Assembly (NCBI GenBank): GCA_040755995.1
Contig: JBFMAF010000010.1
Span: 96,001-160,000 of the forward strand
Direction: 5' to 3'
Length of the DNA: 64,000 nt
Source of the DNA: Acidobacteriota bacterium
GTDB lineage: Bacteria; Acidobacteriota; CAIWXX01
A program made the translations under genes and the position numbers. Below are positions 9,867 through 35,800 of the stretch, piece by piece. Positions within the stretch are counted from its first letter, which is position 1. Every line of letters begins with the position of its first letter. The notes below the pieces were generated by a model, which had not been told where the DNA came from, did not search any database, and saw only the letters and a list, made by a program, of their open reading frames with translations.

Positions 9867-9897
9867 CAACGGTCTGGAGCGAGAAAGGAGGATCGAA

Positions 9898-10308
9898 ATG
9901 GGGAAGAGACTCGCGCTTGTGATCGACGATGAGCTCGATATCAGGAATCACATCTCCGCCGTCCTCGAAGATCATGGCTGGGATGTGCAGACGGCCGGCA
10001 CGTCGGAAGAGGCGGACCAGGTCATCCAGGATACACGGCCCGACCTCATCCTCCTCGACCTGGTGATGCCGGGGCGGGGCGGTCCGATGTTCTTCGCGCG
10101 CTTGCGGGGAGACGACCGGACGAAGTCCATTCCCGTCATCATGGTCACGGGCATCAGGGAGCAGCTCCACATAGATTGGAAGGAGTTCGTTGGGAAGCTG
10201 AAGGCGCGCGTCCCTGATGGATTCATCGAGAAGCCGATAGATGCGAGGGAGCTAGCGAACATGGTGGAACGAGTGACGGCGGGAGGCATCGGAGCTCAGT
10301 CCAGCTGA
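9898..10308 (+). CDS. Single-domain response regulator (receiver only)
   Basis: VIDDE, PDLILLDLVMP, MVTG, FIEKP; AGGAGG RBS. Confidence 0.92.
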   Translation: MGKRLALVIDDELDIRNHISAVLEDHGWDVQTAGTSEEADQVIQDTRPDLILLDLVMPGRGGPMFFARLRGDDRTKSIPVIMVTGIREQLHIDWKEFVGKLKARVPDGFIEKPIDARELANMVERVTAGGIGAQSS

Positions 10309-10349
10309 GCCCCGACCTTCCCTCCCGCACGTCGACCTCGAACGGTGTC

Positions 10350-11684
10350 ATGGGGTTCGCCGGCCGGCTCGGCCTGCGCCACAAGGTCCTGCTCGTCGTG
10401 CTCTGCATTCTGGCCGTCCACAGCGCACTCTCTCTCATTGCGCTGCACAGCATTCTTGGCGGACTCGTTGTTGAGAGCGGCTCCGGCTGGACGGAGGTCG
10501 TGGCCTCGGTCGAGGTCTTCTATCTCGTGGCTCTCGGCGGCCTCGCCGTGATCGCCGTGGCAGTGGCGCGAGAGGCGGCGGGATATCTGACGCGACCGCT
10601 TGTGGATCTCACGCGCATCGCCGATCAAATCAGCGTGGGCGACATGCATGTGACGTTTGACTTCGGGCGCCACGTCCGATGCTGGGAGATCAAGCGATGC
10701 AATGAAACTAGCTGTCGCGCGTACGGGAACACGGAGGTGCAGTGCTGGTTTGTCGATGGGACGCCCTGTCGAGGGGTCGAGCCGCGCTTTCCACAAAAGC
10801 TCGTTCAGTGCCGCCGGTGCGAGGTGTACCTGGCGCACCGGGGCGACGAGATCGTGCAACTCGCAGACTCCTTCCAGCATATGACTCATCGTCTGCGGGA
10901 GTCGCAGGCCGAATTGCTCAGGACGGAGAGGCTTGCCGCGACCGGCGAGGCGGTGGGGATGGTGAGCCACTCGGTCAAGAACATCCTGGACGGGCTTTCA
11001 GGCGGCATCTACGTCTACCGGCGCGGAAGGCGTCTCGATGACGAGAGATCGAAAGCCATGGGTTGGGACATGATTGAACGGAATCTCGGGACGATCTCCG
11101 AGCTCGTCATGAATCTGCTCGACTTCGTCAAAGAGAGAAAGCCATTCCTGGAGCCGTGCGATCCGGAGCGGATGATCAACGATGTCGTGCAGTTGCACCA
11201 GGAGAGGGCCGATGCATCCGGGGCCGTATTGGAGGCACGATCGACCGGGGAGCTCGCCGGGATCTTCCTCGACGCACATGCCGTGTTCCACTGCCTCGTG
11301 AATCTTGTGACGAATGCGCTCGACGCGCTCGTACCCGAGCGCCCCGGCCGGGTCGAGATCGAGGTCGGAAAAGAGGGTGACCAGGTCGTCTTCACGGTGT
11401 CGGACAACGGCAGGGGCATGAGTTCTGATGTGAAGGCGAAGCTCTTCAAAGGGATGTTCAGCACGAAGGGCTCGAAGGGCACGGGGCTCGGCCTTCTCTC
11501 CGTTCAGAAGGCGGTCCGCGAACAGGGTGGCCGTGTCGAAGTCCTGTCGGAAGGAGGGCGCGGAACGACGTTCCGCGTTCTTCTTCCTTTCATCACCAAC
11601 GCCGGCGCGGGACCAGTCGCGGCGTCCCCGCCCGCGCCGGCCTCAGAGAGTCCGGTAGCTGCCGTTCATGAAAGGTCCCCTTAG
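10350..11684 (+). CDS. Membrane sensor histidine kinase; HAMP domain interrupted by Cys-rich two-CW-type domain
   Basis: 2 TM helices; H-box VSHSVKNIL; N-box NLVTNALDA; DNGRGM; FSTKG; GTGLGL; 7-Cys insert at 10680-10829. Confidence 0.92.
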   Translation: MGFAGRLGLRHKVLLVVLCILAVHSALSLIALHSILGGLVVESGSGWTEVVASVEVFYLVALGGLAVIAVAVAREAAGYLTRPLVDLTRIADQISVGDMHVTFDFGRHVRCWEIKRCNETSCRAYGNTEVQCWFVDGTPCRGVEPRFPQKLVQCRRCEVYLAHRGDEIVQLADSFQHMTHRLRESQAELLRTERLAATGEAVGMVSHSVKNILDGLSGGIYVYRRGRRLDDERSKAMGWDMIERNLGTISELVMNLLDFVKERKPFLEPCDPERMINDVVQLHQERADASGAVLEARSTGELAGIFLDAHAVFHCLVNLVTNALDALVPERPGRVEIEVGKEGDQVVFTVSDNGRGMSSDVKAKLFKGMFSTKGSKGTGLGLLSVQKAVREQGGRVEVLSEGGRGTTFRVLLPFITNAGAGPVAASPPAPASESPVAAVHERSP

Positions 11685-11709
11685 GCGGGCCGCTGATAGG
11701 AGGTGCAGA

Positions 11710-12261
11710 ATGAGATTCTCGACGCGAGCGCGGTATGGCCTGCGGATGATGGTCGAGTTGGCTCGCGAGTCCAGAGGCGGCACACCGGTGACTCTGAACC
11801 GTGTCGCTCGAATCACGGGATTATCGGAAGGCTACCTCGGGCAGCTCGTTCTCCTGCTCAAGACAGCCAGCCTCGTCATCGGCATCTCGGGCAAGAACGG
11901 CGGATACGTTCCGGCCCGCCCGCCGGGGGAGATCAAGCTGATCGAGGTCATCAGGGCGCTGCAGGGGCCGATCAACCTTGCCGAGTGTGCGGACCATCCC
12001 GAGATCTGCCTGAACAGCTGCTTCTGCGAGACGCGCGTGATCTGGGTGCTGCTCAACCATCGCATCCTCGAGGTGCTCGAACAATACACGCTGAAGGATC
12101 TCACGGACCGGGCTCGCATGGCCGAGATCCGAAAGAAAAACGCGAACGTGCCGATGCTCGACGCGGATCTGGCTCTGGCTGACGCGGAGTTCGGCCAGGA
12201 TCAAGGATGCCCGATCGCCACGCGACACGGGGCGTCCTCGGCACGAGAGGGATCGGCATGA
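11710..12261 (+). CDS. Rrf2-family transcriptional regulator with Cys cluster
   Basis: MRFSTRARYGLRMMVELA, YLGQLV, GKNGGY, ECADHPEICLNSCFC; GGAGG RBS before ATG 11710. Confidence 0.92.
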   Translation: MRFSTRARYGLRMMVELARESRGGTPVTLNRVARITGLSEGYLGQLVLLLKTASLVIGISGKNGGYVPARPPGEIKLIEVIRALQGPINLAECADHPEICLNSCFCETRVIWVLLNHRILEVLEQYTLKDLTDRARMAEIRKKNANVPMLDADLALADAEFGQDQGCPIATRHGASSAREGSA

Positions 12262-12303
12262 GCTCCAGCTCCAAGACCCCAGGTCGCTTCGGAGGACGAA
12301 CCG

Positions 12304-12678
12304 ATGGCCAAGAGAATTCTGGTTGTTGATGATGAACCCGACGTGGTCGCGCACCTCTGCGCGGTTCTTCGCGACGGCGGGTACGAGACGCTCGAGGCGT
12401 TCAATGGTGAAGGGGCGATGGAGAAGGTCCTGTCCGAAAGACCCGACCTCATCACGCTCGATATCAGCATGCCTCGGATGACGGGGGTCAGGGCATATCG
12501 AACGCTCAAAGAAGATCGTGTACTCTGCGGCATACCGGTCATAATAGTCACTGGTGTCTCATCGGAGTTCAGGCGATTCATTTCGACGCGGACGCAGGTG
12601 CCGCCGCCCGATGGTTACATTCAGAAGCCCATCGAGGTGGAAAGACTGCTTGGGGAGGTGAAACGGCTCATCGGGTAG
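12304..12678 (+). CDS. Single-domain response regulator (receiver only)
   Basis: ILVVDDEPD, PDLITLDISMP, IVTG, YIQKP. Confidence 0.92.
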   Translation: MAKRILVVDDEPDVVAHLCAVLRDGGYETLEAFNGEGAMEKVLSERPDLITLDISMPRMTGVRAYRTLKEDRVLCGIPVIIVTGVSSEFRRFISTRTQVPPPDGYIQKPIEVERLLGEVKRLIG

Positions 12679-17909: not shown

Positions 17910-20204
<2,295 letters not shown>

Positions 20205-20368
20205 GATTGCTTTCCCCCTTTATGATTTGAATCAAGGACTCTCGGGCCTGGCGAATCCGGCTCGCCGATGCCGCCACGTGAATCCACCTGTGATCCGGTA
20301 CCGATGCCGCCCCGCGTACATCTCGCGGCGTCGGCGGGTCGGGTGGAATTCCTCGCTGTCACCAGGCG

Positions 20369-20397
20369 ATGATAGTCCTCTCGGGCGGTCCTGTAAA
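20369..20397 (-). promoter_or_regulatory. Probable maeB promoter
   Basis: TTTACA-N17-TATCAT on minus strand. Confidence 0.5.
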
Positions 20398-20484
20398 GCA
20401 GATCAAGCGGTGCCGCGACGCTATGGCGTCGCAGCACCGCTGGAAAGACCGTCGCCGGGGGCGGCCTGGCAGGCTAAGCCGTAC

Positions 20485-21393
20485 TCATCGCTGTGCGGCC
20501 CCGTCGCAGCCCCCGTTGATGATCCTGTGATGCTCGATCGCCTGCTCATCGGACGACGTGGCATCCGCCGGTGCGGATGCGCCAGCAGCGGAGGTCCAGG
20601 TCGCTTGCCACGTGCCGGACTGATACAGGTACCCGCACGGGTAGATGTATAGGCCCGTGTACGCATAGGTTCCCGTGGCTGTGGTGGCCGAGGTGAACTG
20701 CCCGGTGAAGCTGAATGTGCTGCCGGTGAAGCTAAACGAGCCGCCGCTGATGCTGCCTGGGCCCGGCACCGTGGTCTCCGTCCATCCCCAGCAGGACCCG
20801 AAGTTGAAATCGGTCTTCAGCGTGAAGGTCGAGTATTGCGTCCCGCCCGAGAGCACTAGAAAGGACATCGGCTGCGAACGGCTGGTCGTGCCGGTCCAGG
20901 TTCCGGCCGTCGGCACTATGCCCCCACCCGAGCAGTAGATACTCCAGGTGAACGAGGACCACGAAGCCTTCATCTTGTACTTCCTCGGGCCCCACTGCGT
21001 TGTGCCACATGCATCGACCGCGTAGAACGTGTACCTCCGTCCAGCCTCCAGACGCAGCCGCCTCACCGTGTAGGTACCTGGTCCAGTTGCATACCCCTTG
21101 TACTTCCCATCAATGTAAAGCAGCACCTTTCCCCCACAAACGCAGTTCCAATTCAAGATCTTCCAATAGAACTTGATGGAGTTCGCGTCCTGGGGAGACG
21201 TCGCCATCGAATCCTCGCCGCCGACCAATTGCAGCTCCTCGCCGCCAGCCTCCAACCCTCGCACGGCGATCGCTGATTCCAGGGCTTCGCCCGGTACGAG
21301 ATCGTTTCCTCGAGTAGCCGCCGGAGCGGCGGCGCAGACTGCCGCAAGTCCCATGACGAACGCGGCGACTATGAATGCCATTCTCGACCTCAT
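20485..21393 (-). CDS. Secreted hypothetical protein, two Cys/aromatic-rich beta domains
   Basis: AAAGGAGG RBS then ATG 21393; signal peptide (MRSRMAFIVAAFVMGLAAVCAAA); basic beta domain, then Thr/Ser/Gly-rich domain (AGTWTGTT...SGTWQA). Confidence 0.75.
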   Translation of the reverse strand: MRSRMAFIVAAFVMGLAAVCAAAPAATRGNDLVPGEALESAIAVRGLEAGGEELQLVGGEDSMATSPQDANSIKFYWKILNWNCVCGGKVLLYIDGKYKGYATGPGTYTVRRLRLEAGRRYTFYAVDACGTTQWGPRKYKMKASWSSFTWSIYCSGGGIVPTAGTWTGTTSRSQPMSFLVLSGGTQYSTFTLKTDFNFGSCWGWTETTVPGPGSISGGSFSFTGSTFSFTGQFTSATTATGTYAYTGLYIYPCGYLYQSGTWQATWTSAAGASAPADATSSDEQAIEHHRIINGGCDGAAQR

Positions 21394-21511
21394 CGAATCC
21401 TCCTTTCGGGCAACCCACATCTGGACCGTCGACTTCCAACGGGGCAGTCCCACTGAACCTTCAGGTTGGTTTATTACCGTAATCCCATGTCGCGGGGCTG
21501 TTGGCACCGTA

Positions 21512-22282
21512 CTACCTGCCGCAAACGTTGTCAAACGATGCCTTGGTCCCGCTGCCGGAGACAATAAGCCAGACTGTGTCCTGGTCCGGAACAGTGCTGG
21601 TTGTCCCAGAGATCTTGTAGACCTCTTTCCCATTGATTCGCAGCGCAACTCTGTTCGACGCGTAGACAATCCCGATCTTCGTTACGGCCCCGTAGTTCTT
21701 GGCTCCGGCGACGCACCAGCTGTAGCTGTTCCAGTCATAGAAGAGCATGCCGGCGCGCCCGTCTCTCATGAGCACTCCGCCGAACCCATCAATTCTGTAG
21801 CTTCCGATCTGGAACACAGGGCCTTCGTCGTTGAACGGCTGGAAGCCCATCCAGTTGTTATTGACCTTTTTCGCCATGTTCATTTCGAGGGTGAAGAACT
21901 TGCCCGGGTTGAACGTGTGAGCGATGCGGCCGAGGTAGCTCCCGCTGGTGCTGGTCAGCTCCAGCCGCCCTCCCACCATCTTCCTGGATGCATAGCTGGT
22001 TGTCCAGCCCGGCAGCGCTGGCGCGCTGAAGGTCTCAGAGAGCCATGAGCAGCCGGCGGGGTAGGCCGGCTCGGCGAATGGAGCGTCCAACGCCGGTTCG
22101 CCGATCATGACCAGCTCGTCATGTGCCTCGATTGCCGCCAGCATGACCTGCCGGGCATCCGCCAGCGAACCCTTCCTGGGCCAGTGCCGATCGCGCGAGT
22201 GAATGTTTCCGGGCGCAATGACCAAGATTGCTCCGAGCGAAAGCACGATCGAACCCGTTAACAATAGCCTTGTCGACCACAT
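21512..22282 (-). CDS. Secreted hypothetical protein with LamG/ConA-like beta-sandwich
   Basis: AAAGGAGG RBS then ATG 22282; hydrophobic N-terminus; SETFS..LPGWT, VALRINGK, ASFDNV. Confidence 0.75.
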   Translation of the reverse strand: MWSTRLLLTGSIVLSLGAILVIAPGNIHSRDRHWPRKGSLADARQVMLAAIEAHDELVMIGEPALDAPFAEPAYPAGCSWLSETFSAPALPGWTTSYASRKMVGGRLELTSTSGSYLGRIAHTFNPGKFFTLEMNMAKKVNNNWMGFQPFNDEGPVFQIGSYRIDGFGGVLMRDGRAGMLFYDWNSYSWCVAGAKNYGAVTKIGIVYASNRVALRINGKEVYKISGTTSTVPDQDTVWLIVSGSGTKASFDNVCGR

Positions 22283-22419
22283 AACGAACCTCCTTTGTTT
22301 GAAAGACGAGTCCAATACATCCGTTCCGGTGTGGACCAGTTGCTCGGCCTCCGGACGATTCCCTATGGTCCGATGCCCCGGCCCACTTTTCATTCCATTT
22401 ACTCCCTGGTTCATTCAGT

Positions 22420-22446
22420 AGTGGGATCTCGACAGAAACATTTCAT
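22420..22446 (-). promoter_or_regulatory. Putative ECF sigma-dependent promoter (copy 1)
   Basis: ATGAAATG-TTTCTGTCGAG-ATCCCACT; boxes and spacing identical to the copy at 23528-23554. Confidence 0.75.
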
Positions 22447-22554
22447 GCCCGGGCGGCATTCGGGTTTCCACAGTCCATTCCGATCGAAGCCAAAGGTGCA
22501 ATGGAAGGGCCGCGACGGCGCGAGGGGAACAGACAGCGAGCCGTCTGGATGCAG

Positions 22555-23511
22555 CTACTGAAGTTGTATCGAGAAGGAGTAGTCGGCTATGCCCTCGAAT
22601 GTGCCGTCGGCAGCCGGTGCACTTACCGTGAGAATGTAGTCACCGGTCTTCAGGGCCGCAGCGGGGATCATGACGGACAGGACTGGCTCCGCGGGAGTCG
22701 CGGCCAGGCGTACCTCCTGGCTCCAGACGCTCGTGCCCTCGGGCGTGGACACAGTCGTGCGATACGAGCTCGTTTCGAGGGCTGGCTCGACCTCGACCCG
22801 TGCCTGAACAAACTGTGTCTCACGATGAACAACGAGCTTCTGCGCTCCGGCTCCGCGCACCAGGGGGACGAGATCGACGCTCACGAATTGAGGCGGTGCC
22901 GCGGCCGGGCCGCCGGCGACGGGGCCCGGGGCAGGAGCATTCTCACCGCTCGGTGACCGCACTTCGCCGGATCCGCCGCCTCTCAGGAGCCCTGCGATCC
23001 TCCGTTCCAGCATACGCTCGTTCTGTTCAGCCCTTTCCTTCTCCGCCACCATGCTCTGATAGCGCACTTCAGCTCGATGATATTCGAAAGCGAGCCATAC
23101 ACAGAGGAGCACCATTCCCGTCGCGAATGACAGCTGAACAACCGGGGTCTGGAGGCGGAGCAGCGCTACAAAGGCCCGCAATATCGATGACAGCCGGGAC
23201 TCAGATGCCGGTTCCCGCGCCGGTCTTTCCGCCTGCGCGGCAGCCCAATCAATCAGAGATCTTGCGAAGCGCACTCTCTCCATTCGCGCCGGCGTCGTGA
23301 GGAAGTTCTTCTCGAACAACACCTTCTTGTCCGCCGTAAGCTCATCTTTCACGTATTGGTCGATGAGCTCGTCCTCGACGACGCTGATCCGCTCGAACAG
23401 CGCATCATCGGTCATGTAGCGCTTTTCGAGCTCGATCTCTTCATCCGCCGGCAGACTCCTGAGGAGGTAGTCAACGATGAGTTCGTCTTCCATTCTGCTC
23501 GTCCGGCTCAT
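22555..23511 (-). CDS. Putative anti-sigma factor: cytoplasmic helical domain, single TM, coiled coil, extracytoplasmic Ig-like domain
   Basis: DYLL..L..DEE.ELE.RY...EDELIDQYV N-terminus; TM LSFATGMVLLCVWLAF; beta-rich C-terminus (LKTGDYILTV); directly after ECF sigma. Confidence 0.7.
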   Translation of the reverse strand: MSRTSRMEDELIVDYLLRSLPADEEIELEKRYMTDDALFERISVVEDELIDQYVKDELTADKKVLFEKNFLTTPARMERVRFARSLIDWAAAQAERPAREPASESRLSSILRAFVALLRLQTPVVQLSFATGMVLLCVWLAFEYHRAEVRYQSMVAEKERAEQNERMLERRIAGLLRGGGSGEVRSPSGENAPAPGPVAGGPAAAPPQFVSVDLVPLVRGAGAQKLVVHRETQFVQARVEVEPALETSSYRTTVSTPEGTSVWSQEVRLAATPAEPVLSVMIPAAALKTGDYILTVSAPAADGTFEGIADYSFSIQLQ

Positions 23512-23527
23512 AAGGCTCCCTTATTCC

Positions 23528-23554
23528 AGTGGGATACTCCCCGAATCATTTCAT
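23528..23554 (-). promoter_or_regulatory. Putative ECF sigma-dependent promoter (copy 2), overlapping sigma stop codon
   Basis: ATGAAATG-ATTCGGGGAGT-ATCCCACT, 16 nt upstream of the anti-sigma ATG. Confidence 0.75.
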
Positions 23555-24154
23555 CAGTGCTTCAATGCACGCCCGGATCTCTTCCTTGATCCGGAGTATC
23601 CGAAGTCTCAGTGCATTGATCGAGACGCCCAACCGGCGGGCGAGCTCGTTTCTGGCCTCGATCTTGGCGCGCCCTCTGTCGCCGTAATAAGCGATGACCA
23701 GGTCGCGCTCCTGCTGAGCCAGTCGGCCCATGCACTCGTTCAGAGACTCGATCCTTTGTTCCTTGCTGAGTCTCTCCGCCTCCTCCGCCTCCTGCTCGAC
23801 CGGGTTGACCGCAGGTTCCACCAGACAGCCCGCGCCTCCGGTCTTCGCCGTGGCGTCCCAGTACTCGTGCAGCACGTTTCTGGCTACGCCAAGGAAGTAG
23901 GTCGCAGGCTGATCGGCCATGATGACAAGGCCGTCGTTCAGCCTGGCTGCCACACGGAAGAACACTTCGTCGGCCAGGTCGGCGGCACTTGGGCAGCCCT
24001 TCCACTCGAGAAACCGGATCAGCTTCCTGCGAATAAGCAGGTACTGCTCGCCGGCGCGATCCGGGTCCGGATGGAGCTGCGACATCAAGAGGCGCAGCGA
24101 GTCTGCGGTGAGAGCCCTCGCTCGCTTCCGCGGCTCCGAGGCCTCACCCGTCAT
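23546..24154 (-). CDS. ECF-type RNA polymerase sigma factor
   Basis: Region 2 (AADLADEVFFRV, YFLGVARNV) and region 4 (CMGRL...ERDLVIAYY, ELARRLGVSINALRLR). Confidence 0.85.
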   Translation of the reverse strand: MTGEASEPRKRARALTADSLRLLMSQLHPDPDRAGEQYLLIRRKLIRFLEWKGCPSAADLADEVFFRVAARLNDGLVIMADQPATYFLGVARNVLHEYWDATAKTGGAGCLVEPAVNPVEQEAEEAERLSKEQRIESLNECMGRLAQQERDLVIAYYGDRGRAKIEARNELARRLGVSINALRLRILRIKEEIRACIEALMK

Positions 24155-24262
24155 GGTTGTCCGCGGCCCGGCCTACAGGCGTCGAGCCGGCAGTGCTATA
24201 CAGCGCGTCATGCACTACGCCGACTCGTTGAAGTCCTTGCGGACTTATGACCCGCTGTACAG

Positions 24263-27200
24263 TCAATTCCAGTCGCCCTGGAGCACGAACGCGGCCCAGT
24301 AGAACGGCTGGGACCATCGCGGGCTCTTCAGCATCCCGATCTGAGCGGCGCGGAGGGCCGCCGCTGGAGGCAGGCGCCGCGTGCCCAGCATGGCGTCGTA
24401 GAAGCGGTTCATGAGCTCCGCGGTCGCGGTATCCTCCACCTTCCACAGACTCGCCAGTACACGTTTCGATCCCGCATACATGAAGCCTCTGGTAAGGCCC
24501 ACAAGACCCTCTCCCTTGATCTCCTTGCCGAGCGCCGTCTGGCAGGCGCTCAGCACGACGAGGTCCGCCGCGAGCCTCATGTTGTAAATGTCATAGAGCT
24601 TGAGGAATCCGTCCTGAGGGCCGCCCTTCGGATCGACGAGTGAAAGGAGGACGCCCGACAGCTCAGGGGTGACATTGTCGAGGATCCCGTGCGTCGCGAA
24701 GTGCACAATTCTATATTGGGAGATTTCGTCGCTCATGGCGGTCCCCCTGCTGGCATCGAAGTCCATAGCCAGCTTCCGGAGGGCGGCGGGTACTGAACGA
24801 GTGATGGACTGAGCTTCTCGGCGGGTAAAAGGGAGTCGTGGAATCGCGACCGAGCCCTGCCCCAGGCCAATATCGCGCACCGCGCGTCCGACGCCGAAGG
24901 GGGACACAGGCGTCTCAACGTTGCCGGTGGATGCTGATGCCCCCACGCGAGGATCACCGCGCTCGAACACGGGATCGGCGAACACCGCTACCGTCTTCGA
25001 CGCCGGCTTCCGATCGCCCACTTCTCGTCTCAGCTCGGCCAAGGCGGATGCTGAGGGAAGGTTCAGCACTTCGCATCGGGCGACGAGCGGTTCATACGCC
25101 TGGCGCGGCCCTGCGCCCTCGGATGGCGGCAGGGGCAGAGCGGCGAATGGCACGTACTGCAGCGCTCCGTCAGCGACTACCAGCAGCCGTCTGGGGCTCA
25201 GCTTCGCCAGTGGGCCAAGGATCATCTGGCTCAGGCTGACGGCAGCGGTGCGAAAGTCCAAATCCGCTCGTTCGATGCGCGCGCGCCTCGCCGTCAAGCT
25301 CTCGCCGTCGACTTGCCGATTGCGTTCATTCAGCAGACGATAGACGTCGCGAGCCGAGGCCTCGATCTCCGCGCGTCCCGGCAGCCTGTAGGAATCCAGT
25401 CGATCGGGCCCGACGACCCAGCAGTAGCTTTCCTCATCGCCCAGCGCGTATTCCAGGAGGAACGCGCCTTCCCCGGTGATTTCTTCTTGAATCTGCCCGA
25501 CTCCGAGGGGCGCGGGCTGCGTCAGGGCAGCGTAATGAGGGCTCTTCTCGCGTATCTCCGCCTCAACCTGCTGGTACTCATGCGTGAGTGATGCGATCTC
25601 GCTCGCAAGGGCGGCGGCCTGCGCCGGCGTGTGTTTTCCGCTGAGGAGGCGTATCTGGCGTTCGGCCTTGGCACTCAGCCGCTCCCTCAGAGACCTCTCC
25701 TTCTGCAGGAGCGCTTCATCGACGCCCGCGCGTATGTCGATGCTGCCCTCGGCAAGCATCTCCAGGAGGCTCCGCGCTCGAGCGCGCTCGCTGGCCTCCA
25801 GTGCCTCCCGCTCATGTCCCTCCTCGGTCTTCTGCCGATTCATCTCCATGAGTAGTCGTATATAGAACTCGTAGTATCGCTGGGCCGTGGCGAAGTAGGA
25901 CGCGCGGAGCTTCTCCGTTGCCAGTCCTGCCCGGATTGACTCGACGATATCGAGGGCGGCCTCGATATCGCGGCGCGCTTCGGATAGCTTGCCGGCGGTG
26001 AACTCCAGCTCGGCGAGTCCCCAAAGCGTCTCAGCCTCGCCGCCCCGGTCGGCGACGTCGCGTCGCACGGACAGAGCACCGTTCAGATATTCTGTGGACT
26101 CCTGGACATGGCCGACGGACTTCTCGGCCATGCCCATGTTGTGGAGGGTTGCGGCCTCTCCAAACTTGTCCCCGGTTTGAATCCGCAGCGGGAGTGCCTG
26201 GTTGTAATACTCCATCGCCTTCTGCGGCTGGTCCGCCTTCGCATAGGCGCTTCCGATGTTGTGCAGAACGTTCGCCTCTTCCGACCGGTCCTGCACGGAC
26301 CTGGCTAGCGACAAGGCCTTATCGTAGTAACCCAGCGCTTCCTGCGTGTCTCCCAGACTCACCCGAACGGCTCCCATGTTGTTCATGACTACGGCCTGGC
26401 CCCCACGATTCCCTGCCGCCTCCCAGAGCGCCTGGGACCGCTTGTAGTAGCTCAGCGCCGTCTCAGTCTCTCCGACTGAGTTGTACAGATCGCCGACGTT
26501 GTTCAGGACTGATGCTTCAGTGTCCTTGTCGCCGACGTCCCTAAGTAGACCGAGAGCCGCGTTGTAATCATCGAGCGCCGCCTGTATCTCGTCCAATGAT
26601 GACAATGCGGCGCCGATGTTCGACAGCGTTATGGCCTCGCCCCTCTTGTCGTTCAGGGCACGGCGCAGGGGCAACGCCTGGTTATGATACTCGAGTGCCT
26701 TGCGCTTCTCGCCCAACGAATCATAGACCGCCGCGATATTGTTGAGCGTGATCACTTCACCCATGGCTTCCTTCGCTTCGCGGACGATGGCCAAGACCCG
26801 TGTGTAGCATTCGAGCGCCTTCGCGTTCTCGCTGACAGACCAGTAGACAAGGCCCAGGTTGTTGAGCGCCCCGGCCTCTCCCATCTTGTCCCCACGCGTC
26901 CTCAGTATCGCCACAGACCGATTCAGGCTCTCGATCGCCCGGTCTTTGTTCCCAAGTGCGTTATTGATCAGGCCGATATTGGCGAGCATCTCCGCTTCGC
27001 CCGCTTCGTCCTTCAATGCGCGAATGATGTCGATCGCCTTCGTGAAGTGGTCTAGTGAGCTCGGCATGTCGCCGCGGAGGTACGAGATCTCGCCCAGCTT
27101 GGAGAGTGTGAGCGCGCACTTCTGATCTTCGGCGGCTGCGCGGAAGTGCTTCAGGGCTCCGTCGTACTTTCCTGCCGCATTCCCGAGCGATTCAGCAGTC

Positions 27201-27730: not shown

Positions 27731-27952
27731 TCTCGCTAGATCCCCTCGGTTAAATCGTCGTCTTGGACGAGCAGCTCCGCAGACAACGATCAGTCCTCTA
27801 CCGACTACCCTATCGGGTAACACCTGGGGCGTCAAGCACCTCGCTTCTACTTCTACTCAACGTGAGCGGCTGAGAGCGAGTGCCGGCTCCATTGAGTTCG
27901 CGAACCTCCTGAGGGGTCAGCGACGAGGGTGCGCCTGCACCCGCAGGCGCGA

Positions 27953-28801
27953 CTAGATCGCCTGGCGGTAGTCGCCCGGTGTTCGCCTCGTGATCTTCTT
28001 GAAGACACGGCAGAAGTAGGCCGGATCGCGGTAGCCGCACTGCCGGGCTACCTCCTCTACTCGCAGCCGGTACGTCTTGAGAAGGTACTTGGCTCTGTCG
28101 ACGCGCACATAGGCCAGGTAGTCGCAGAACTTCATGCTGCCGTGCACCCGGAAAAGCCGCGAGAGGTGGTTTGGACTGATGCCGAACTCGGCGGCCGCGC
28201 TGTCCCTCGTGATTACGTGCTGGTAGTTGTGCTGGAGATAGCCGCAGATCTCATCCATCAATTGCCTGCCCTTGCTCTTTCTCGTGAGCGACGGCTCGGC
28301 CACCATGTCGCGCAGACAGAACAGGAGCGCGCGGACGAGATCGGGGAGCGCTGCATGGGGCGCAGCTTTCGGCTGCAGCTCGATCATCGCGGCGAGCACC
28401 TTCTCGGCAGGCCCGCCGAGCGGCTGAGGGAGGGCAAGCTTGTCGGCACGGAGAGTGCCCCGGCGCGCACGGCGAGCTGTGACAACACTGATGCCGATCT
28501 GTCTCCTTCCGAAGAGGAACGCAATCACTCGCACCGGGTGCCGCCACGTGGGCCGGTTCCAGCAGTTCGGAGGCGCGAACACCGCGTCACCCGGGGCTGG
28601 CGCGATCAGCGTCGGCTTGCCCGCTCGTTCGATTTCCATCTCGTATCTCCCCTGTAGCGGTAGCTCCAATCTTGCGAAGTTGACCACGTGACTGAGGAGG
28701 GGAGGCGAGGTGAGGCGGCCGCACACGTAGACATGGCGCAGTGGACTGCGCAGGATTCGATCCAGGGTGTCGATCACGAGGCGCTGCAAGCTCATGGCCA
28801 C
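27953..28801 (-). CDS. AraC family regulator, YijO-like
   Basis: VNFARLEL, PGDAVFAPPNCWN..W, LFGRRQIG; C-terminal double HTH (ISPNHLSRLF, CGYRDPAYFCRVFKK); divergent from PTS operon. Confidence 0.9.
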   Translation of the reverse strand: MAMSLQRLVIDTLDRILRSPLRHVYVCGRLTSPPLLSHVVNFARLELPLQGRYEMEIERAGKPTLIAPAPGDAVFAPPNCWNRPTWRHPVRVIAFLFGRRQIGISVVTARRARRGTLRADKLALPQPLGGPAEKVLAAMIELQPKAAPHAALPDLVRALLFCLRDMVAEPSLTRKSKGRQLMDEICGYLQHNYQHVITRDSAAAEFGISPNHLSRLFRVHGSMKFCDYLAYVRVDRAKYLLKTYRLRVEEVARQCGYRDPAYFCRVFKKITRRTPGDYRQAI

Positions 28802-28952
28802 TCACGAATGTTACGATTATCCAGTGAATAATACATCTTTCCTCTTGCCGGCGATGCGGGCCCGTAGGATGATTCGTGCGCCTGGATGTGGCTCGCGGTC
28901 TCCAGGCGCGTGAGGAGAGTGGACGCGCGACCGCGGGGAGGGAGCAAGAACG

Positions 28953-30029
28953 ATGTTACAGCAGCACAAGCAGTACCTGCTCACCGGGGTGTCGTATGTG
29001 GTGCCGTTCATCGCATGCGGCGGCATCCTGATCGCGAGTGCGATCGCGTTCGCGCCTATGACGGCCGCGGGGCCGGATTTCTCTCATTCGCCTGTGCTCG
29101 AACTCGTCGTTGACATCGGTTCGGCGGCCTTCGCCCTGGCCATGCCCGTTCTGGCCGGATTCATCGCACACGGGATCGCCGGCAGGCCGGGGTTGGTTCC
29201 AGGCATGATCGGCGGCTTCATCGCCAACCAGCCGTTCGCCGTAACGGTAGGCGGTCAGACCCAAGGGGTGAAGGCCGGCTTCCTCGGAGCCCTACTGGCA
29301 GGGCTTCTGGCAGGGCACCTGGTCAATCTCGTCAAGAAGGCTCCGATCCCGAAGTTCGCCCGGCCGGTCATGCCCATCATTGTGATCCCGGCGCTCACCG
29401 GAGTCATGATCGGCGTGGTGATGTTCAAGTTCGTGGGTGAACCGGTCGCCTCGCTCATGGCGTCGCTGAGCCGTGGCCTCGACACGATGGGGCAGGGCAA
29501 CGCTGTCCTGCTTGCCGCCGTGCTCGGTGCGATGATCGCGTTTGACATGGGGGGACCTGTGAACAAGGCGGCCTTCTTCTTCGGTGCCGCAATGATTCAG
29601 AACAACCCGCCGAACTATACCATCATGGGTTGTACGGCCGCCGCCATATGCACACCTCCACTCGGCCTCGCTCTCGCCACTCTGGTCCACCGCAAGCTCT
29701 GGACGGAAGAGCAGCGCGAGTCCGGGATCGCGGCGCTGGGCATGGGAATGATCGGCATTACCGAGGGTGCGATCCCGTTCGCCGCCGCCGACCCGGTGCG
29801 CGTCATCCCAAGCATCATGCTGGGCTCGATGGTGGCCGCCGTGATCGCCATGCTGGGGGCCGTTGGCGACCACGCTCCACACGGCGGCCCGATCGTATTG
29901 CCCGCCGTGGTCAACCGCATGCCGTACGTCGTGGCGATCGTGGCCGGAACGGTGGTCACCGCTTTGACAATCAATCTCCTCAAGCTCCTGACCGAAAACA
30001 ATCGAGACGCAAAGGATCAACGAGGATGA
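28953..30029 (+). CDS. PTS fructose/mannose-family EIIC (FrwC-like)
   Basis: LLTGVSYVVPF, FDMGGPVNK, ICTPPLG, GITEGAIPFAAADP, APHGG. Confidence 0.93.
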   Translation: MLQQHKQYLLTGVSYVVPFIACGGILIASAIAFAPMTAAGPDFSHSPVLELVVDIGSAAFALAMPVLAGFIAHGIAGRPGLVPGMIGGFIANQPFAVTVGGQTQGVKAGFLGALLAGLLAGHLVNLVKKAPIPKFARPVMPIIVIPALTGVMIGVVMFKFVGEPVASLMASLSRGLDTMGQGNAVLLAAVLGAMIAFDMGGPVNKAAFFFGAAMIQNNPPNYTIMGCTAAAICTPPLGLALATLVHRKLWTEEQRESGIAALGMGMIGITEGAIPFAAADPVRVIPSIMLGSMVAAVIAMLGAVGDHAPHGGPIVLPAVVNRMPYVVAIVAGTVVTALTINLLKLLTENNRDAKDQRG

Positions 30030-30319
30030 GAATCGTTGCAGTCACGGCCTGTCCCACCGGCATCGCTCACACTTACATGGCGGCCGAGCAGCTTGAGAAG
30101 ACGGCAAAGAGGCTCGGTCACATCATCAAGGTCGAGACCCAGGGCGCCATGGGAATCGAGAATGAGCTCCGGCAGAGCGACATCGACGCCGCAGAGGTGG
30201 CCATCTTTGCAACAGACATCGCGGTCGAGCAACCGGAACGCTTCGCTCGAATCCGCACTGTCACGGTCCCCGTGCAGTTGGTGCTCAGAGATCCTGCAGC
30301 CGTCTTCGACAAACTGTGA
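30026..30319 (+). CDS. PTS fructose-family EIIB (FrwB-like)
   Basis: MRIVAVTACPTGIAHTYMAAE, VETQG; ATGA overlap with EIIC. Confidence 0.93.
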   Translation: MRIVAVTACPTGIAHTYMAAEQLEKTAKRLGHIIKVETQGAMGIENELRQSDIDAAEVAIFATDIAVEQPERFARIRTVTVPVQLVLRDPAAVFDKL

Positions 30320-30335
30320 GCGCACCGGGGCAGTC

Positions 30336-32855
30336 ATGCCGCTTGAGATTCGTTTCAACTGTCAACTGGCCGGCGGCGTGCACGCGCGTCCGGCGAGTGC
30401 TCTGGAAGAGCTGACGGCGCGCTTCCGATCGGAATTCTCCCTCGTCAACGAGCGGAACGGCTGCCGCGCCAACGCACGGAGTGTGCTGGCACTAGTGGCG
30501 TCCGATATCCGACTGGACGACGCTTGTCGCCTGGAGATAGCCGGGCCTGACGAACAGGAGGCCCATGCGGAGATGGCGAGGTTTCTGCGAGAACGTTTCC
30601 CGTGTTGCGACAACGACATTCCAACGGTCCAACCGCCGGGGGAGGAATTCAGCCTGCCGCCTGACCTCCGGGAAAGCACCATGACGTACTGGCGCGCCAC
30701 GCCTGCCGCCGCCGGGATCGGTCTCGGACGTATTGTTGAAATCGAGCCCTTCGAGCTACCCGAGACGCTGGCGAACATGCGACCCTTGGGCGCCGAGCAG
30801 GAGCGGAGGAGGATCGAGGAGGGGCTGTATGCGCTGAACGCAGCACTGGCCGAGCAAGCTGCGCGAATGCCTTCCGATGCGGCCGCCGGCATTGTCGCTG
30901 CGCATCAGGCAATCGCGCGGGATCCCGAGTTTCGGGCCAGCCTGATCGAGGCCGTCACCGCAGTCGGGCTGTGCGCTGCCCGTGCCGTCGCCGAGTCCGA
31001 AGCACACTTCAGCCGGATGTTGATGGCCACCTCCAGCGAGCTGCTGCACCAGCGCGTCCTAGATGTCCAGGACGTGTGCCGCCAGTTGCTGGACAAGATC
31101 TACGGCGAGGCCGCTCGGAGATCCGAAGCTCCACTCACCGAAGATGCCATATGCCTCGCCGAAAGCCTAACGCCGAGCCAGCTCCTGGCGCTGGACCGGC
31201 GCTATCTCAAGGGATTGGTTCTCTTCCAGCCAGGAACGACGTCCCACGTGCACATCCTTGCGCGTTCTTTCGGCATCCCCACACTGACCAGAGCCGTGGG
31301 GCTCACCGGCCGGCGCATCGCCGGCGAGCTTGCCGTGGTCGACGCCGAGATCGGACTTCTCGCCACGAACCTGGACGAGACGGCGCGACGGTACTACGCC
31401 ATGGAGCAGGACCGCCTGCGGCGTCGTCAGGCCCGGCTGCTCCGGCTTGCCGAGGGACCTGGCGACACAAGTGACGGCCAGCCTCTACAGATCGCCGCAA
31501 ACATAAGCTCGGCCGACGAGGCAGCCTGCGGCGTCGCCGCGGGAGCCGATGGTGTGGGGCTCTTCCGCACAGAGATGCTCTTCATGAACCGGGATCGGCC
31601 CCCCTCCGAGGGAGAGCAGTTCGAGGAGTACCGCAGGGCTCTGTACGCGGCAGCTGGCAAGCCCGTCATCATTCGCACACTCGACGCAGGCGGTGACAAG
31701 CCGCTGCCATTTCTCAACCAGCCGGTCGAGGCAAACCCGTTCCTCGGCTGCCGCGGCGTGCGGCTCTACCCGCGGCACGAGGCACTCTTTCGAGCTCAAG
31801 TCCGCGCCCTCCTGCGCGCGTCCGTGTTCGGGCCGCTGAAGATGCTCGCCCCAATGGTTTCTCACCTCGATGAAGTCCGGTGGATGAGACGAATAGTCGA
31901 GGAGGAGTCGGCGCGGATTCCCGAGACAGGTCAGCAGGGCAAACGTCACGTGCCGCTGGGAGTCATGCTGGAAGTGCCATCGATCGCATTCGCTCTGGAT
32001 CACTTCTGCCGCGAAGTGGACTTCTTCAGCATCGGGTCCAACGATCTGCTGCAGTATTTCCTGGCCGCCGATCGCGCCAACCCCGGCGTGTCTGGGATCT
32101 CGGATCCGTTGAGCCCCGGCTTTTTGCGCCTGCTCAAGAAGGCGGTCGACGACGTTCACACGCATGGGAAGCGGATTGGATTGTGCGGCGAAATGGCGAT
32201 CTCAGTCCGCTATCTGCCTCTGCTGGTCGGGCTCGGCCTTGACGAGATCAGTGTGGCCGTCCCGGCCGTGGCCGAAATCAAAGCAGCGCTCGCTCGCCTG
32301 TCGTCCAGCGACTGCTCGGAACTTCTCACCGCGGTTCTGCGCTCTCCGACGGCGCGTGAGGCCGCTGAATGTCTCGATCGGTTTCACCAGCAGTCGTGCG
32401 ACCCGATCGTGGACGAGAATCTGATTCTGATGAGCTCCGGCAGCCGCACGAAGGCCGAGGCGATCAAAGAGATCGTGGACAACTTCTTTGTGCAAGGACG
32501 AACCGATCGCCCGCGAGACGTCGAGGTCGCAATCTGGCAGCGCGAGTCAGTCTACTCGACCGGTCTGGGATATGGGATAGCGATTCCACACTGCAAGTCC
32601 GATTCGCTGCGGGCGGACACGATGGGGCTGCTCAGGCTCGATCAGCCCGTAGATTGGGGCTCCGTGGATGGCCAGCCGGTGAAGCTTGTGATCCTTCTCG
32701 GGCTTCGCGAATCCAGTCCCAAGGAGACTCACATGCGCATCTTCAGTCGCCTGGCCCGGCGCCTGATGCACGAAGATTTCAGGGCCCGCCTTATCGAGCC
32801 GTGCGATCCGGCATCGACTCTGAATGCGCTTCAGGAAGAACTGGAACTGGCGTGA
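30336..32855 (+). CDS. Multiphosphoryl transfer protein HPr-EI-EIIA (PtsA/FrwA-like)
   Basis: HPr GVHARPA; EI TSHVHILAR, GLFRTEM, RTLDAGGDK, ANPFLGCRG, FSIGSNDL, GLCGEMA; EIIA STGLGYGIAIPH. Confidence 0.93.
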   Translation: MPLEIRFNCQLAGGVHARPASALEELTARFRSEFSLVNERNGCRANARSVLALVASDIRLDDACRLEIAGPDEQEAHAEMARFLRERFPCCDNDIPTVQPPGEEFSLPPDLRESTMTYWRATPAAAGIGLGRIVEIEPFELPETLANMRPLGAEQERRRIEEGLYALNAALAEQAARMPSDAAAGIVAAHQAIARDPEFRASLIEAVTAVGLCAARAVAESEAHFSRMLMATSSELLHQRVLDVQDVCRQLLDKIYGEAARRSEAPLTEDAICLAESLTPSQLLALDRRYLKGLVLFQPGTTSHVHILARSFGIPTLTRAVGLTGRRIAGELAVVDAEIGLLATNLDETARRYYAMEQDRLRRRQARLLRLAEGPGDTSDGQPLQIAANISSADEAACGVAAGADGVGLFRTEMLFMNRDRPPSEGEQFEEYRRALYAAAGKPVIIRTLDAGGDKPLPFLNQPVEANPFLGCRGVRLYPRHEALFRAQVRALLRASVFGPLKMLAPMVSHLDEVRWMRRIVEEESARIPETGQQGKRHVPLGVMLEVPSIAFALDHFCREVDFFSIGSNDLLQYFLAADRANPGVSGISDPLSPGFLRLLKKAVDDVHTHGKRIGLCGEMAISVRYLPLLVGLGLDEISVAVPAVAEIKAALARLSSSDCSELLTAVLRSPTAREAAECLDRFHQQSCDPIVDENLILMSSGSRTKAEAIKEIVDNFFVQGRTDRPRDVEVAIWQRESVYSTGLGYGIAIPHCKSDSLRADTMGLLRLDQPVDWGSVDGQPVKLVILLGLRESSPKETHMRIFSRLARRLMHEDFRARLIEPCDPASTLNALQEELELA

Positions 32856-32878
32856 ACCTATATCGAAGGGGAGCAACA

Positions 32879-35800
32879 ATGATGCAAACCAAAGCCCGCA
32901 CGATTGGACTCGGGCTGACGCCCCTCATCTGCCTGCTCGCTTCGACGCTGGCTGCCCGCGCGGCGGTTGCGGAGGAGCGGCCCCTGCTGACGAAGGTCGA
33001 TCTTTCCAAAGACAAGGTGCTCTACGTTGTAGCCTATGCGCACCTCGACACGCAGTGGCGTTGGGACTACGCCACGACAATCGACGAGTTCATCCGGAAC
33101 ACCCTGGACGACAACTTCGGTCTCTTCGCGAAGCACCCGGACTACATCTTCAACTTCACCGGCGCAGCGCGCTACAACATGATGAAGGAGTACTATCCCG
33201 CAAGGTTCGAGAAGATGAAGGAGTACGTACGGCAGGGCCGCTGGCACGTGTCGGGATCTTCGGTTGACGAGGGCGACGTGAATGTTCCTTCACCCGAGAG
33301 TGTCATCCGGCAGATCCTCTACGGCAATATCTTCTTCCGCCGCGAGCTGGGTGTTGAAAGCACCGACTACATGCTGCCGGACTGCTTCGGCTTCCCCGCA
33401 TCTCTGCCGTCGATCTTCGCGCATTGCGGCCTGACAGGTTTCTCAACGCAGAAGCTCTCGTGGGGCTCGGCCGCCGGCGTCCCGTTCTCGATCGGCGTGT
33501 GGGAAGGGCCGGACGGCCGCGGTGTTGTTTGTGCTATGAACCCGGGGGACTACGCGGCCGGCATCAGCAGCCGTCTCGACACCGACCGGAGCTGGGTCAG
33601 ACGCGTGGACGAAAACGGCGAGAGATACGGCGTGTTCGCCGACTATCATTATTACGGCGTCGGTGACGAGGGTGGAGCCCCGGAGGAGAAGGACGTCGAA
33701 ATGCTCGAAGCCAGCCTCCGCAACCCCGACGCACAGGTCCGTGTGCTGCCGGCGGCCTCCGACCAACTCTACAAGGATCTCGCACCGGAACAGGTCCAGC
33801 GGTTGCCTCGGTACAAGGGCGACCTGTTGCTCACCGAGCACTCTGCCGGCAGCATCAGCTCCCAGGCCTACATGAAGCGATGGAACCGGAAGAACGAACA
33901 GCTCGCCGATGCGGCCGAACGGGCCGCGGTGCTCGCCGACTGGCTCGGCGCTCAGCCCTACCCGGTCGAGAAGCTTCAGCGCGCGTGGGCAAGGGTCCTC
34001 GGGAGCCAGTTCCACGACATCCTCCCCGGCACCAGCCTCCCGCGATGCTACAACTTCGCGTGGAACGACGAGGTTCTCGCCCTGAACCACTTCGCGGCCG
34101 TGCTGCAGGCATCGGCGGGTGTAACCTCACGCGCGATGGACACGCGTGCCGAGGGACAACCGCTTGTGGTTTACAATCCACTTTCAATTGAGCGAGAGGA
34201 CGTGGTGGAAGCGGTGGTGACGTTCGCCGGCGGGGCGCCGCAGGCGGTGCGCGTGTACGATCCGCAGGGCCGCGAGATCCCGTCGCAGATTCAGTCGAAG
34301 GCGGGGGACATGGTGACTGTGCTGTTCCTGGCTCACGTCCCGCCCACCGGCTTCGCCGTGTACGACGTACGCCCATCCAATCGCGCGAGTGCGCTCCGCA
34401 CCGGGTTGAGCGCATCAGGGCGCATACTCGAGAACGCGGCCTACCGGGTGACCGTCAACGAAGCCGGCGACATCAGCAGCGTAGTGGACAGGCAGAATCG
34501 CAACCGCGAGCTCCTGGCCCGTCCCGCGCAGCTCCAATTCCTGCACGAGCAGCCGAAGCGGTGGCCCGCATGGAACATGGACTGGACCGATCGACAGAAG
34601 TCTCCGGCCGGTGTAGTTGGCGCCCCCGCGCAGATCCGGCTTGTCGAGAACGGCCCGGTGCGCGTCGCGCTGGAAGTCGTCCGATCCGGTCGCGGATCGA
34701 TCTTTACCCAACATATCCGTCTGGCCGCCGGCGATGCGGGCCGGCGCTTGGAGATCAAGACGAGCATCGACTGGCAGTCCCAATCGTGCTCGTTGAAGGC
34801 GGCCTTCCCGCTGACCGTCCGAAATCCGCAGGCAACCTACAACTGGGGCCTCGGCACCATCGCGCGCGGCAACAACGACCCGAAGAAATACGAAGTCCCC
34901 TCGCACGAGTGGTTCGATCTCACGGACATCAGGGGTGACTACGGAGTTACTGTTCTCGAGGACTGCAAGTTCGGTTCCGACAAGCCCGATGACCAGACGG
35001 TTCGACTCACGCTGCTGTACACACCAGGAGTCCGCGAGTACTATCAGGACCAGGGAACGCAGGACTGGGGCCGCCACGACGTGCTCTATGCCCTCTACGG
35101 GCACAGCGGCGATTGGCGGACGGGTAACAGTGAATGGCAGGGCAGGCGCCTGAACCAGCCGCTCGTCGCTTTCCAGGTGCCTCCGCACGCGGGGCCACTG
35201 GGCCGAAAGTTCTCGTTGATGCAGGTCAGCACGCCGGAAGTGGACGTGCGTGCCTTCAAGAAAGCCGAAGCAGGCGGCGCTTTCGTCGTGCGCTTGCAGG
35301 AGCTGTACGGCCGGGCCGCCAGGAACGTCGGCGTCTCGTTCGCTGCACCGGTCGTCTCGGCCGAGGAAGTGGACGGCCAGGAGCGACGCATCGGCTCGGC
35401 ATCGGTGCGCGACGGCAAGCTGATACTGGATATGACCGCGTTCAGCCTTCGCAGTTTCGCCGTGGTTCTGGCCAGCCCGCTGGCGAGCCTGGCAGCGCCG
35501 GCGTTCCAGCCGGTAAGCATCCCGCTCGACACAGACGTGGTGAGCGCCGACAGCAATCGCAACGACGGCGACTTCGCATGCGGCATGACGATCCCGGCCG
35601 AAGAGCTTACTGCGACGATCGAGACGGAGGCCGCAACATTTGCGCTCGGCAGCACCACACCAGGCGCGTCGAACGCCCTTGTGTGCCGCGGCCAGCGGAT
35701 CGCGCTGCCTTCCGGCGGCTTCAACCGCATCTATATCCTCGCTGCCGCCGCCGAGGACGCCGACGGCGAGTTCGCGGTTGGTGCGCAGAAGACGCTGGTG

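Follow-up and report, generated by a model that had tools for sequence, protein, structure and literature searches.

In the 64,000-nt stretch of Acidobacteriota DNA analysed here (the window), a bipartite motif occurs twice within a locus that encodes a caspase-like protease, a divergent sigma factor and a predicted anti-sigma factor (Table 1). Sequence comparison across species indicates that this motif is real and has been conserved in a large acidobacterial family of regulatory gene clusters. It very likely serves the adjacent sigma factor as its cognate ECF promoter. In all likelihood, the released sigma factor would transcribe its own membrane inhibitor together with two probably exported proteins (cargo 1 and cargo 2), and not its own gene.

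Table 1. Features of the sigma factor locus and its surroundings, in window coordinates.
Feature	Coordinates	Strand	Properties
P1, candidate ECF promoter	23554-23528	minus	Exact match, ATGAAATG-attcggggagt-ATCCCACT
P2, second motif copy	22446-22420	minus	Exact match, ATGAAATG-tttctgtcgag-ATCCCACT
Candidate sigma70-like promoter, TTGACG-17-TAGGGT	27807..27835	minus	Upstream of the CHAT-sigma-anti-sigma operon; 8/12 consensus matches
TPR-CHAT caspase-like protease, 1155 aa	24263..27730	minus	PF12770, E 1e-69
Divergent ECF-type sigma factor, 202 aa	23546..24154	minus	TIGR02937, E 1.9e-8, sub-cut-off
Predicted single-pass anti-sigma factor, 318 aa	22555..23511	minus	Structure model, mean pLDDT 87, pTM 0.48
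Cargo 1, 256 aa	21512..22282	minus	Hydrophobic N-terminus; no Pfam match
Cargo 2, 302 aa	20485..21393	minus	Hydrophobic N-terminus
Strong inverted repeat with arms of 19 nt and a loop of 4 nt	20403..20444		After cargo 2

The initial annotation had described an identical bipartite motif present twice on the minus strand, and exact matches were found at both places. The distances it gave were likewise verified: P1 overlaps the sigma stop codon (TGA, 23548-23546), and 16 nt separate its end from the anti-sigma ATG (23511); P2 begins 109 nt beyond the anti-sigma stop and ends 137 nt before the ATG of cargo 1 (22282), which is preceded by a Shine-Dalgarno (SD) sequence. Its description of the motif as two 8-mers with an 11-nt spacer holds for the exact repeat, but the conserved boxes comprise about 7+7 nt with a spacer of 12 nt (12 or 13 nt in the family), the first of them being followed by a T-rich spacer start. 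In P1, the −35 box TGAAATG (23553-23547) and the −10 box TCCCACT (23534-23528) are thus separated by 12 nt. With up to three mismatches allowed, the window contains three motif matches versus a mean of 0.23 in shuffled sequences, and none of 100 shuffles reached three. A scan of the whole genome (7,735,285 nt, both strands, up to two mismatches, spacers 10-12), as the annotation had proposed, returned only P1 and P2 at spacer 11 and four further matches, each with two mismatches, at spacer 12. A weak family-type site inside the CHAT coding sequence (27071-27046, minus strand, 10.7 bits, spacer 12) is within the chance rate. Because the motif was chosen post hoc, and a hand estimate gives ∼0.3 chance 8+8 repeats (any spacer) per 8 kb at the local composition, the single locus by itself is only moderate evidence for the motif. 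We therefore tested it across homologues, and it is by these cross-species tests, not by the single locus, that we regard the motif as established.

The sigma family was found in 47 of 401 genomes of the same phylum, with up to seven copies per genome, and has 2130 representatives at E≤1e-10. We fetched 93 distinct loci, 85 of which are <70% identical (the 8 that are >70% identical were dropped); left out were loci with a partial sigma match or one below 120 bits, as well as the 5 of 93 without an anti-sigma match. A de novo bipartite EM search over the 100 nt 3′ of the last conserved Cys codon in 84 homologues, with the window excluded, yielded TG(A/T)AA(T/C)(G/A)-N12/13-nnnCA(T/C)(T/A) with a log-likelihood of 198.6; neither of two shuffled sets exceeded 63.1. 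Searching sigma-gene 3′ ends in homologues, as the annotation had suggested, thus recovered the motif blind. The resulting family matrix gives the window's P1 a score of 16.0 bits, the seventh highest among 93 loci, and 50 of 79 training loci carry a P1 site of at least 10 bits. From 80 held-out loci, 62 with <80% identity to the training set were kept (1 lacked a full sigma match and 17 were too similar), and 61 could be scored. The annotation had named absence from orthologous loci as evidence against its proposal; a P1 site of at least 10 bits is present in 48 of these 61 loci, compared with 0 of 61 shuffles and 3 of 61 regions upstream of sigma, in a held-out set that is not fully independent because all its members come from one related clade. 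In 21 of 51 good P1 sites the sigma gene stops at the TGA within the −35 box, and the apparent −35 conservation is inflated for this reason; by hand count, the sigma stop opens the −35 box in 37 of 48 held-out P1 sites. One well-supported subclade (L073, L078, L090, L091, L093, L100, L103, L109 and L123) carries NALSIRACR in sigma-4, a shifted −10 box (TGTCTTA) and a CHAT gene that mostly lies downstream of the anti-sigma gene.

ECF (group 4) sigma factors are small proteins with sigma2 and sigma4 domains only, and an upstream autoregulatory promoter is common among them but not obligatory. In the present family the sites lie elsewhere. Using 400-nt windows and a threshold of at least 13 bits, we found a second copy behind the anti-sigma stop in 12 of 77 training loci (antisense, 1/77) and in 14 of 53 held-out loci (antisense, 0/53), versus 4 of 79 within the anti-sigma gene and 11 of 433 after other genes. 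At the weaker threshold of at least 10 bits the number behind the anti-sigma gene rises to 24 of 77, and most loci have no strong second site in the tested window. Where CHAT is encoded downstream of the anti-sigma factor, a site of at least 10 bits follows CHAT in 9 of 12 loci. A locus's own motif recurs (up to two mismatches) in 7 of 48 loci, versus 0.44% for the motifs of other loci. Since sites follow sigma, anti-sigma, or CHAT where CHAT comes last, the placement rule that these sequences indicate is one site 3′ of sigma and often another 3′ of the last regulatory gene. No site of at least 13 bits occurs upstream of sigma in any of 77 training or 61 held-out loci, or upstream of the CHAT gene in 19 training loci. 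Conservation of P1 at the sigma 3′ end, with no site upstream of sigma or CHAT, supports the proposal that the sigma factor targets its anti-sigma gene without autoregulation. The further suggestion that this negative feedback replaces the usual autoregulation is supported comparatively, but the wiring has precedents, at least in the cited sections on HasI/HasS (PMC9249621) and rseAP3 (PMC8595263).

Sigma supply would then come from elsewhere. The sigma70-like candidate upstream of the window's operon falls below the threshold of a generic sigma70 scan, which returned two sites versus 1.6 expected, neither of them at the motif. Across the family, sigma70-like promoters precede the module's first gene in 20 of 81 loci, the window's candidate among them, versus 3.7 expected (7/29 vs 1.3 and 13/52 vs 2.4 expected), which fits a constitutive sigma supply.

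Evidence for promoter function also comes from a feature outside the motif model. A pyrimidine-purine step is found at +7/+8 behind the −10 box in 65% of 46 P1 and 79% of 28 P2 sites, versus 23% of 870 chance matches; in the held-out clade the step is at +6/+7, in 72% of 46 P1 and 52% of 23 P2 sites. The same start-site criterion is applied by Todor et al. in the cited part of their study (PMC7776599). Counted from this step, the boxes span about −33 to −27 and −14 to −8. In the window, the predicted P1 start (∼23522-23520) leaves a 10-12 nt leader with an SD sequence before the anti-sigma ATG, and the predicted P2 start, G 22412 at a T|G step, leaves a ∼130-nt leader before cargo 1. The predicted 130-nt leader (22412-22283, minus strand) would fold as a stem-loop plus a hairpin that covers the SD sequence; Rfam gave no match at E≤1 across 20200-24300.

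The two sites of a locus resemble each other. Spacer length is equal between copies in 22 of 24 loci (permutation p 5e-5; this and the following p-values are overstated because the loci are kin), and agreement is weaker in the held-out set (18/24). Box identity within a locus is 10.96/14 versus 8.39 permuted, and the identity of the spacer sequence is only 5.3/12 versus 4.1. Residue 181 of the sigma factor covaries with base 3 of the −35 box (35/2/6/9, Fisher p 6e-5) and residue 184 with base 4 (5/0/4/43, p 5e-5); an independent pairs test on the tree found 1-2 supported pairs (p 1, too few pairs), and the held-out table (46/1/2/0) shows almost no variation. The 11 rows with the −35 T variant require 9 changes and therefore do not form one clade. 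Both residues, Ala181 and Leu184 in the window, lie within the predicted sigma-4 recognition helix, which we take to be the NALRLR helix. Motif identity climbs with sigma protein identity (Spearman 0.18; from 8.4 to 11.6 of 15) and is barely raised by a shared genome (9.12 vs 8.8). The two paralogous modules of this genome differ, with GAAAT and a 12-nt spacer in the window versus GTAAC and a 13-nt spacer in the other (C55), and we predict that the C55 module is insulated from that of the window. In the C55 module (G000:C55; L006 9944-3904, minus strand), sigma comes first, followed by anti-sigma, TPR-CHAT and cargo; GTAAC-13-nt sites lie where the sigma gene ends and 133 nt behind CHAT. Its sigma factor has Thr at the position equivalent to Ala181, and its cargo and the L020 cargo are homologous.

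These results bear on three other explanations of the motif. It could be a promoter read by another, shared sigma factor, as might be supposed from the 175 matches of at least 13 bits that the family matrix gives in the genome and from the reappearance of motif classes in distant loci. We regard this as quite improbable: the copies agree within a locus and differ between the two paralogous modules, motif identity tracks sigma identity and hardly genome sharing, and a clade model that includes the window sites in its training set finds genome-wide only 2 other matches of at least 19 bits versus 7.7 expected, and so no further strong site that would point to a wider regulon. Slightly less probable again is an operator for a factor other than sigma, such as the upstream AraC regulator (27953-28801), or an RNA-level signal of gene boundaries. 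Both copies do lie at gene boundaries; however, the motif is asymmetric and strand-specific, keeps a 12/13-nt spacer with a pyrimidine-purine step at start-site distance, and is bound to the sigma 3′ end in two independent locus sets.

That the repeat is a functionless accident, or a by-product of stop-codon context, is barely credible to us, even granting the post hoc choice of the motif, the repeat rate estimated above and the many loci in which TGA-A overlaps the stop. P2 copies are not located at stop codons, the sigma stop is outside the −35 box in 23 of 51 good P1 sites, and the EM, second-copy and held-out tests refute this explanation computationally. The motif is best read, as the annotation had proposed, as the cognate ECF promoter: family conservation, placement and the start-site signature support this reading, and all of this support is computational.

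The sigma factor itself is divergent. Its TIGR02937 match covers residues 55-196 with 34.1 bits, below the cut-off of 42.9, and in Pfam it has a weak r4_2 match alone, without a Sigma70_r2 match. The family profile matches solved SigE over positions 50-194 (E 0.006); the DdvS chain is not among the 3 PDB matches of the family at E≤0.01, in a copy of the PDB that may lack DdvS. The anti-sigma model comprises a helical N-domain (∼1-95), a TM helix (∼124-141), a coiled coil, a flexible linker, and an Ig-like beta-sandwich (209-317). Residues 1-100 contain no Cys or His as zinc ligands, and CxxC occurs in 0 of 67 homologues; the family N-domain is present in 88 of 93 loci. A model of the sigma factor with anti-sigma residues 1-105 has an ipSAE of 0.79 versus 0.14 for the best control, with contacts on sigma2 and sigma4, at least 91% contact agreement between runs and a partner pLDDT of at least 84; among reference pairs, 116 of 157 solved ones attain the ipSAE mark, as do 2 of 215 mismatched ones. 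The anti-sigma N-domain is thus predicted to bind sigma, although this result may stem from similarity to sigma/anti-sigma complexes of known structure. Fold searches with the anti-sigma model matched generic Ig-like folds only (TM by target 0.23-0.53), and likenesses to phage baseplate and amoebal protease-inhibitor proteins were not read as function.

The TPR-CHAT protein starts at ATG 27730 (the longest ORF opens at TTG 27835), has a hydrophobic, signal-like N-terminus and retains the motif residues His1014 and Cys1063. A hydrophobic N-terminal stretch is present in 37 of 40 separate CHAT proteins of the family. Of 85 loci, 58 have a CHAT gene with the module: immediately upstream in 31, immediately downstream in 12, fused in 4 and elsewhere in 13, with overlap between the categories. 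In the other 27, CHAT is absent from the fetched 6-9 kb. CHAT is fused behind the anti-sigma TM helix in 4 of 85 loci and in 15 ORFs among the 62 held-out loci. The anti-sigma-TM-TPR-CHAT fusions (L095, L129, L131, L136, L029, and 15 ORFs in L149-L220) are ∼1200 aa long and zinc-free, and Tyr, Ser or Ala usually takes the place of Gly directly after the catalytic His. An RseP was found in the genome, over its cut-off. The whole genome (G000) encodes 12 CHAT-domain proteins versus 2 sigma and 2 anti-sigma factors of the family.

In the mechanism we propose, a basal CHAT-sigma-anti-sigma transcript would be made from a housekeeping-type promoter, and the anti-sigma factor would hold sigma at the membrane. 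On an extracytoplasmic signal, which we guess to be a peptide or protein bound by the TPR or PPC-like part, the exported TPR-CHAT protein would clip the periplasmic linker of the anti-sigma factor and RseP would complete the cleavage. Free sigma would then fire P2, for the cargo, and P1, for fresh anti-sigma, which would recapture the fixed sigma pool so that the response ends as a pulse. The CHAT trigger is the least certain step. We lean only slightly towards CHAT as the site-1 protease, by analogy with the DdvA model in the portion of PMC11506125 cited here, which the periplasmic topology matches; in addition, fusions exist and the His/Cys motif residues are mostly kept. A real, if lesser, possibility keeps the promoter assignment but gives CHAT another role, as co-sensor, inactive scaffold or downstream effector, with the anti-sigma factor inactivated otherwise. 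The 27 loci without a nearby CHAT gene and the excess of CHAT proteins over sigma factors in the genome favour this alternative, as do loci that place CHAT downstream of P1, where CHAT would be a target.

As to the output, no site of at least 8 bits lies between cargo 1 and cargo 2 in the window. Co-transcription of cargo 2 with cargo 1 is inferred because it has no site of its own there. The closest relative (G001, locus L019; sigma 46% identical) has three sites, all with spacer 12, before anti-sigma, behind anti-sigma, and before a 65%-identical cargo 2 orthologue, which independently places cargo 2 in the regulon. Three partial cargo 2 paralogues have no site upstream (best 9.3 bits). In L019, the region between P2 and the cargo 2 orthologue (9600-12600) contains, besides two genes on the opposite strand, short ORF fragments and a remnant similar to part of the TPR-CHAT gene, which suggests cargo turnover. 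The annotation's assignment of two downstream secreted proteins as targets is supported: P2 enrichment and the G001 site favour both as targets. "Secreted" corresponds to hydrophobic N-termini only, from which we regard both proteins as probably exported. Cargo 1 has a predicted 3-keto-disaccharide-hydrolase/LamG-like beta-sandwich fold (TM 0.52-0.59, a lead only). Residues ∼160-265 of cargo 2 form a module common to S-layer-homology, FN3 and PPC proteins, and a search of the Atlas gave no usable match for this protein.

In other loci the first genes behind P2 are mutually unrelated, and 17 of 31 encode a hydrophobic N-terminus by a crude score and with several doubtful ORF calls. Of 32 cargo candidates, 23 were scanned in Pfam (9 were omitted, having no ORF or a doubtful ORF call or being left out); the matches include Big_2, CsgG, PEP-CTERM, F5/8 and CarboxypepD_reg, and 11 proteins had none. 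PADLOC identified no defence genes: it returned no match for cargo 1 or 2 and one generic permease match among 22 homologous cargo proteins. The module's output thus looks like a set of swappable surface or exported proteins.

The inverted repeat after cargo 2 is likely the end of the cargo transcript. Just behind this hairpin, a sigma70-like promoter (20397-20369, minus strand, 10/12 matches) precedes a 764-aa gene (20204-17910, minus strand), presumably a malic enzyme with a phosphotransacetylase-like domain. It is followed by a gene pair (17861-17239, minus strand) that resembles a small MazF/PemK-type toxin-antitoxin module, and by an M43 (pappalysin-like) metallopeptidase gene (17069-16170, minus strand) with a signal-like N-terminus (PF05572, E 1.3e-15). 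On the other side (27953-36187), the AraC regulator gene is divergent from a presumed PTS operon of the fructose type and a gene that is presumably alpha-mannosidase-like.

Taken together, these data can be joined in a reading that we offer tentatively and to which we give somewhat less than an even chance. An unnamed Acidobacteriota ECF family would act as a pure negative-feedback switch, in which a stop-codon promoter drives only the anti-sigma gene and a swappable exported cassette, with a caspase-like protease, exported on its own, as the site-1 trigger. Up to seven paralogous circuits in one genome would be kept apart by a two-residue sigma-4 code together with spacer length. The motif offers a ready reporter for a large uncharacterised sigma family, and its locus-specific variants are candidate orthogonal sigma/promoter pairs. 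Our literature search, which covered papers outside subscription, returned no paper on this sigma family or motif, and an ECF group description may exist. Standard ECF promoter discovery, as set out in the cited part of PMC7776599, searches upstream of the sigma gene or operon, so that a family with a 3′-end promoter would be missed.

Several known systems share parts of this arrangement, as far as the cited portions of the respective papers describe them. ECF54, the only group with a mention of CHAT in the part of the PMC7826278 supplement considered here, is likewise encoded near TPR-CHAT proteins, but it is actinobacterial, lacks a putative anti-sigma factor and has the promoter GTATCAG/CTCC. 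In the type III-E CASP-sigma/Csx30/Csx29 system (PMC10028731), a TPR-CHAT protease cuts the anti-sigma factor and three motif copies lie in the locus; that system, however, is cytoplasmic and RNA-triggered via Cas7-11. The window sigma factor scores 17.9 bits against NF041236 (CASP-sigma; cut-off 100), and none of the flanking genes is a cas gene. E. coli rseAP3 (PMC8595263) is a sigmaE-dependent promoter that drives rseABC without rpoE, but sigmaE also autoregulates via rpoE P and has a large regulon. HasI of Serratia marcescens (PMC9249621) drives its anti-sigma factor HasS and targets, not its own gene, and shuts off rapidly. HasI/HasS is nevertheless of the FecI/FecR type, with TonB-receptor signalling and Fur control, whereas the window has no FecR domain and the promoter placement is a rule across its family, often with the promoter lying over the stop codon.

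Another parallel is DdvS/DdvA of Myxococcus xanthus (PMC6061681, PMC11506125), which likewise combines an ECF sigma factor, a single-pass anti-sigma factor and a periplasmic TPR-CHAT domain with a small local regulon read off a bipartite motif and with proposed cleavage by CHAT at site 1 and then by RseP; CHAT activity of DdvA itself is only proposed in the cited portion of PMC11506125. Some homologues of the window's family share the fused order of DdvA, but in the window the TPR-CHAT protein is a separate exported protein and the anti-sigma factor has no zinc-binding (CHCC) domain and ends in an Ig-like domain. The promoters differ as well (TGAAATG-12-TCCCACT versus GTAAn16CGT), ddvS has its own promoter whereas the window's family has no site upstream of sigma, and the targets are surface or exported proteins here and CBASS/CRISPR in the case of DdvS. 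In the same portion of PMC11506125, DdvA-like zinc-domain anti-sigma factors are confined to Myxococcota and one Comamonas; the fusions found here, being zinc-free, fall outside that definition. The module is therefore a split, zinc-free analogue of DdvS/DdvA and not a member of the DdvA group, and, because CHAT and the anti-sigma factor are separate genes, it makes the DdvA proposal of a periplasmic caspase-like site-1 protease testable.
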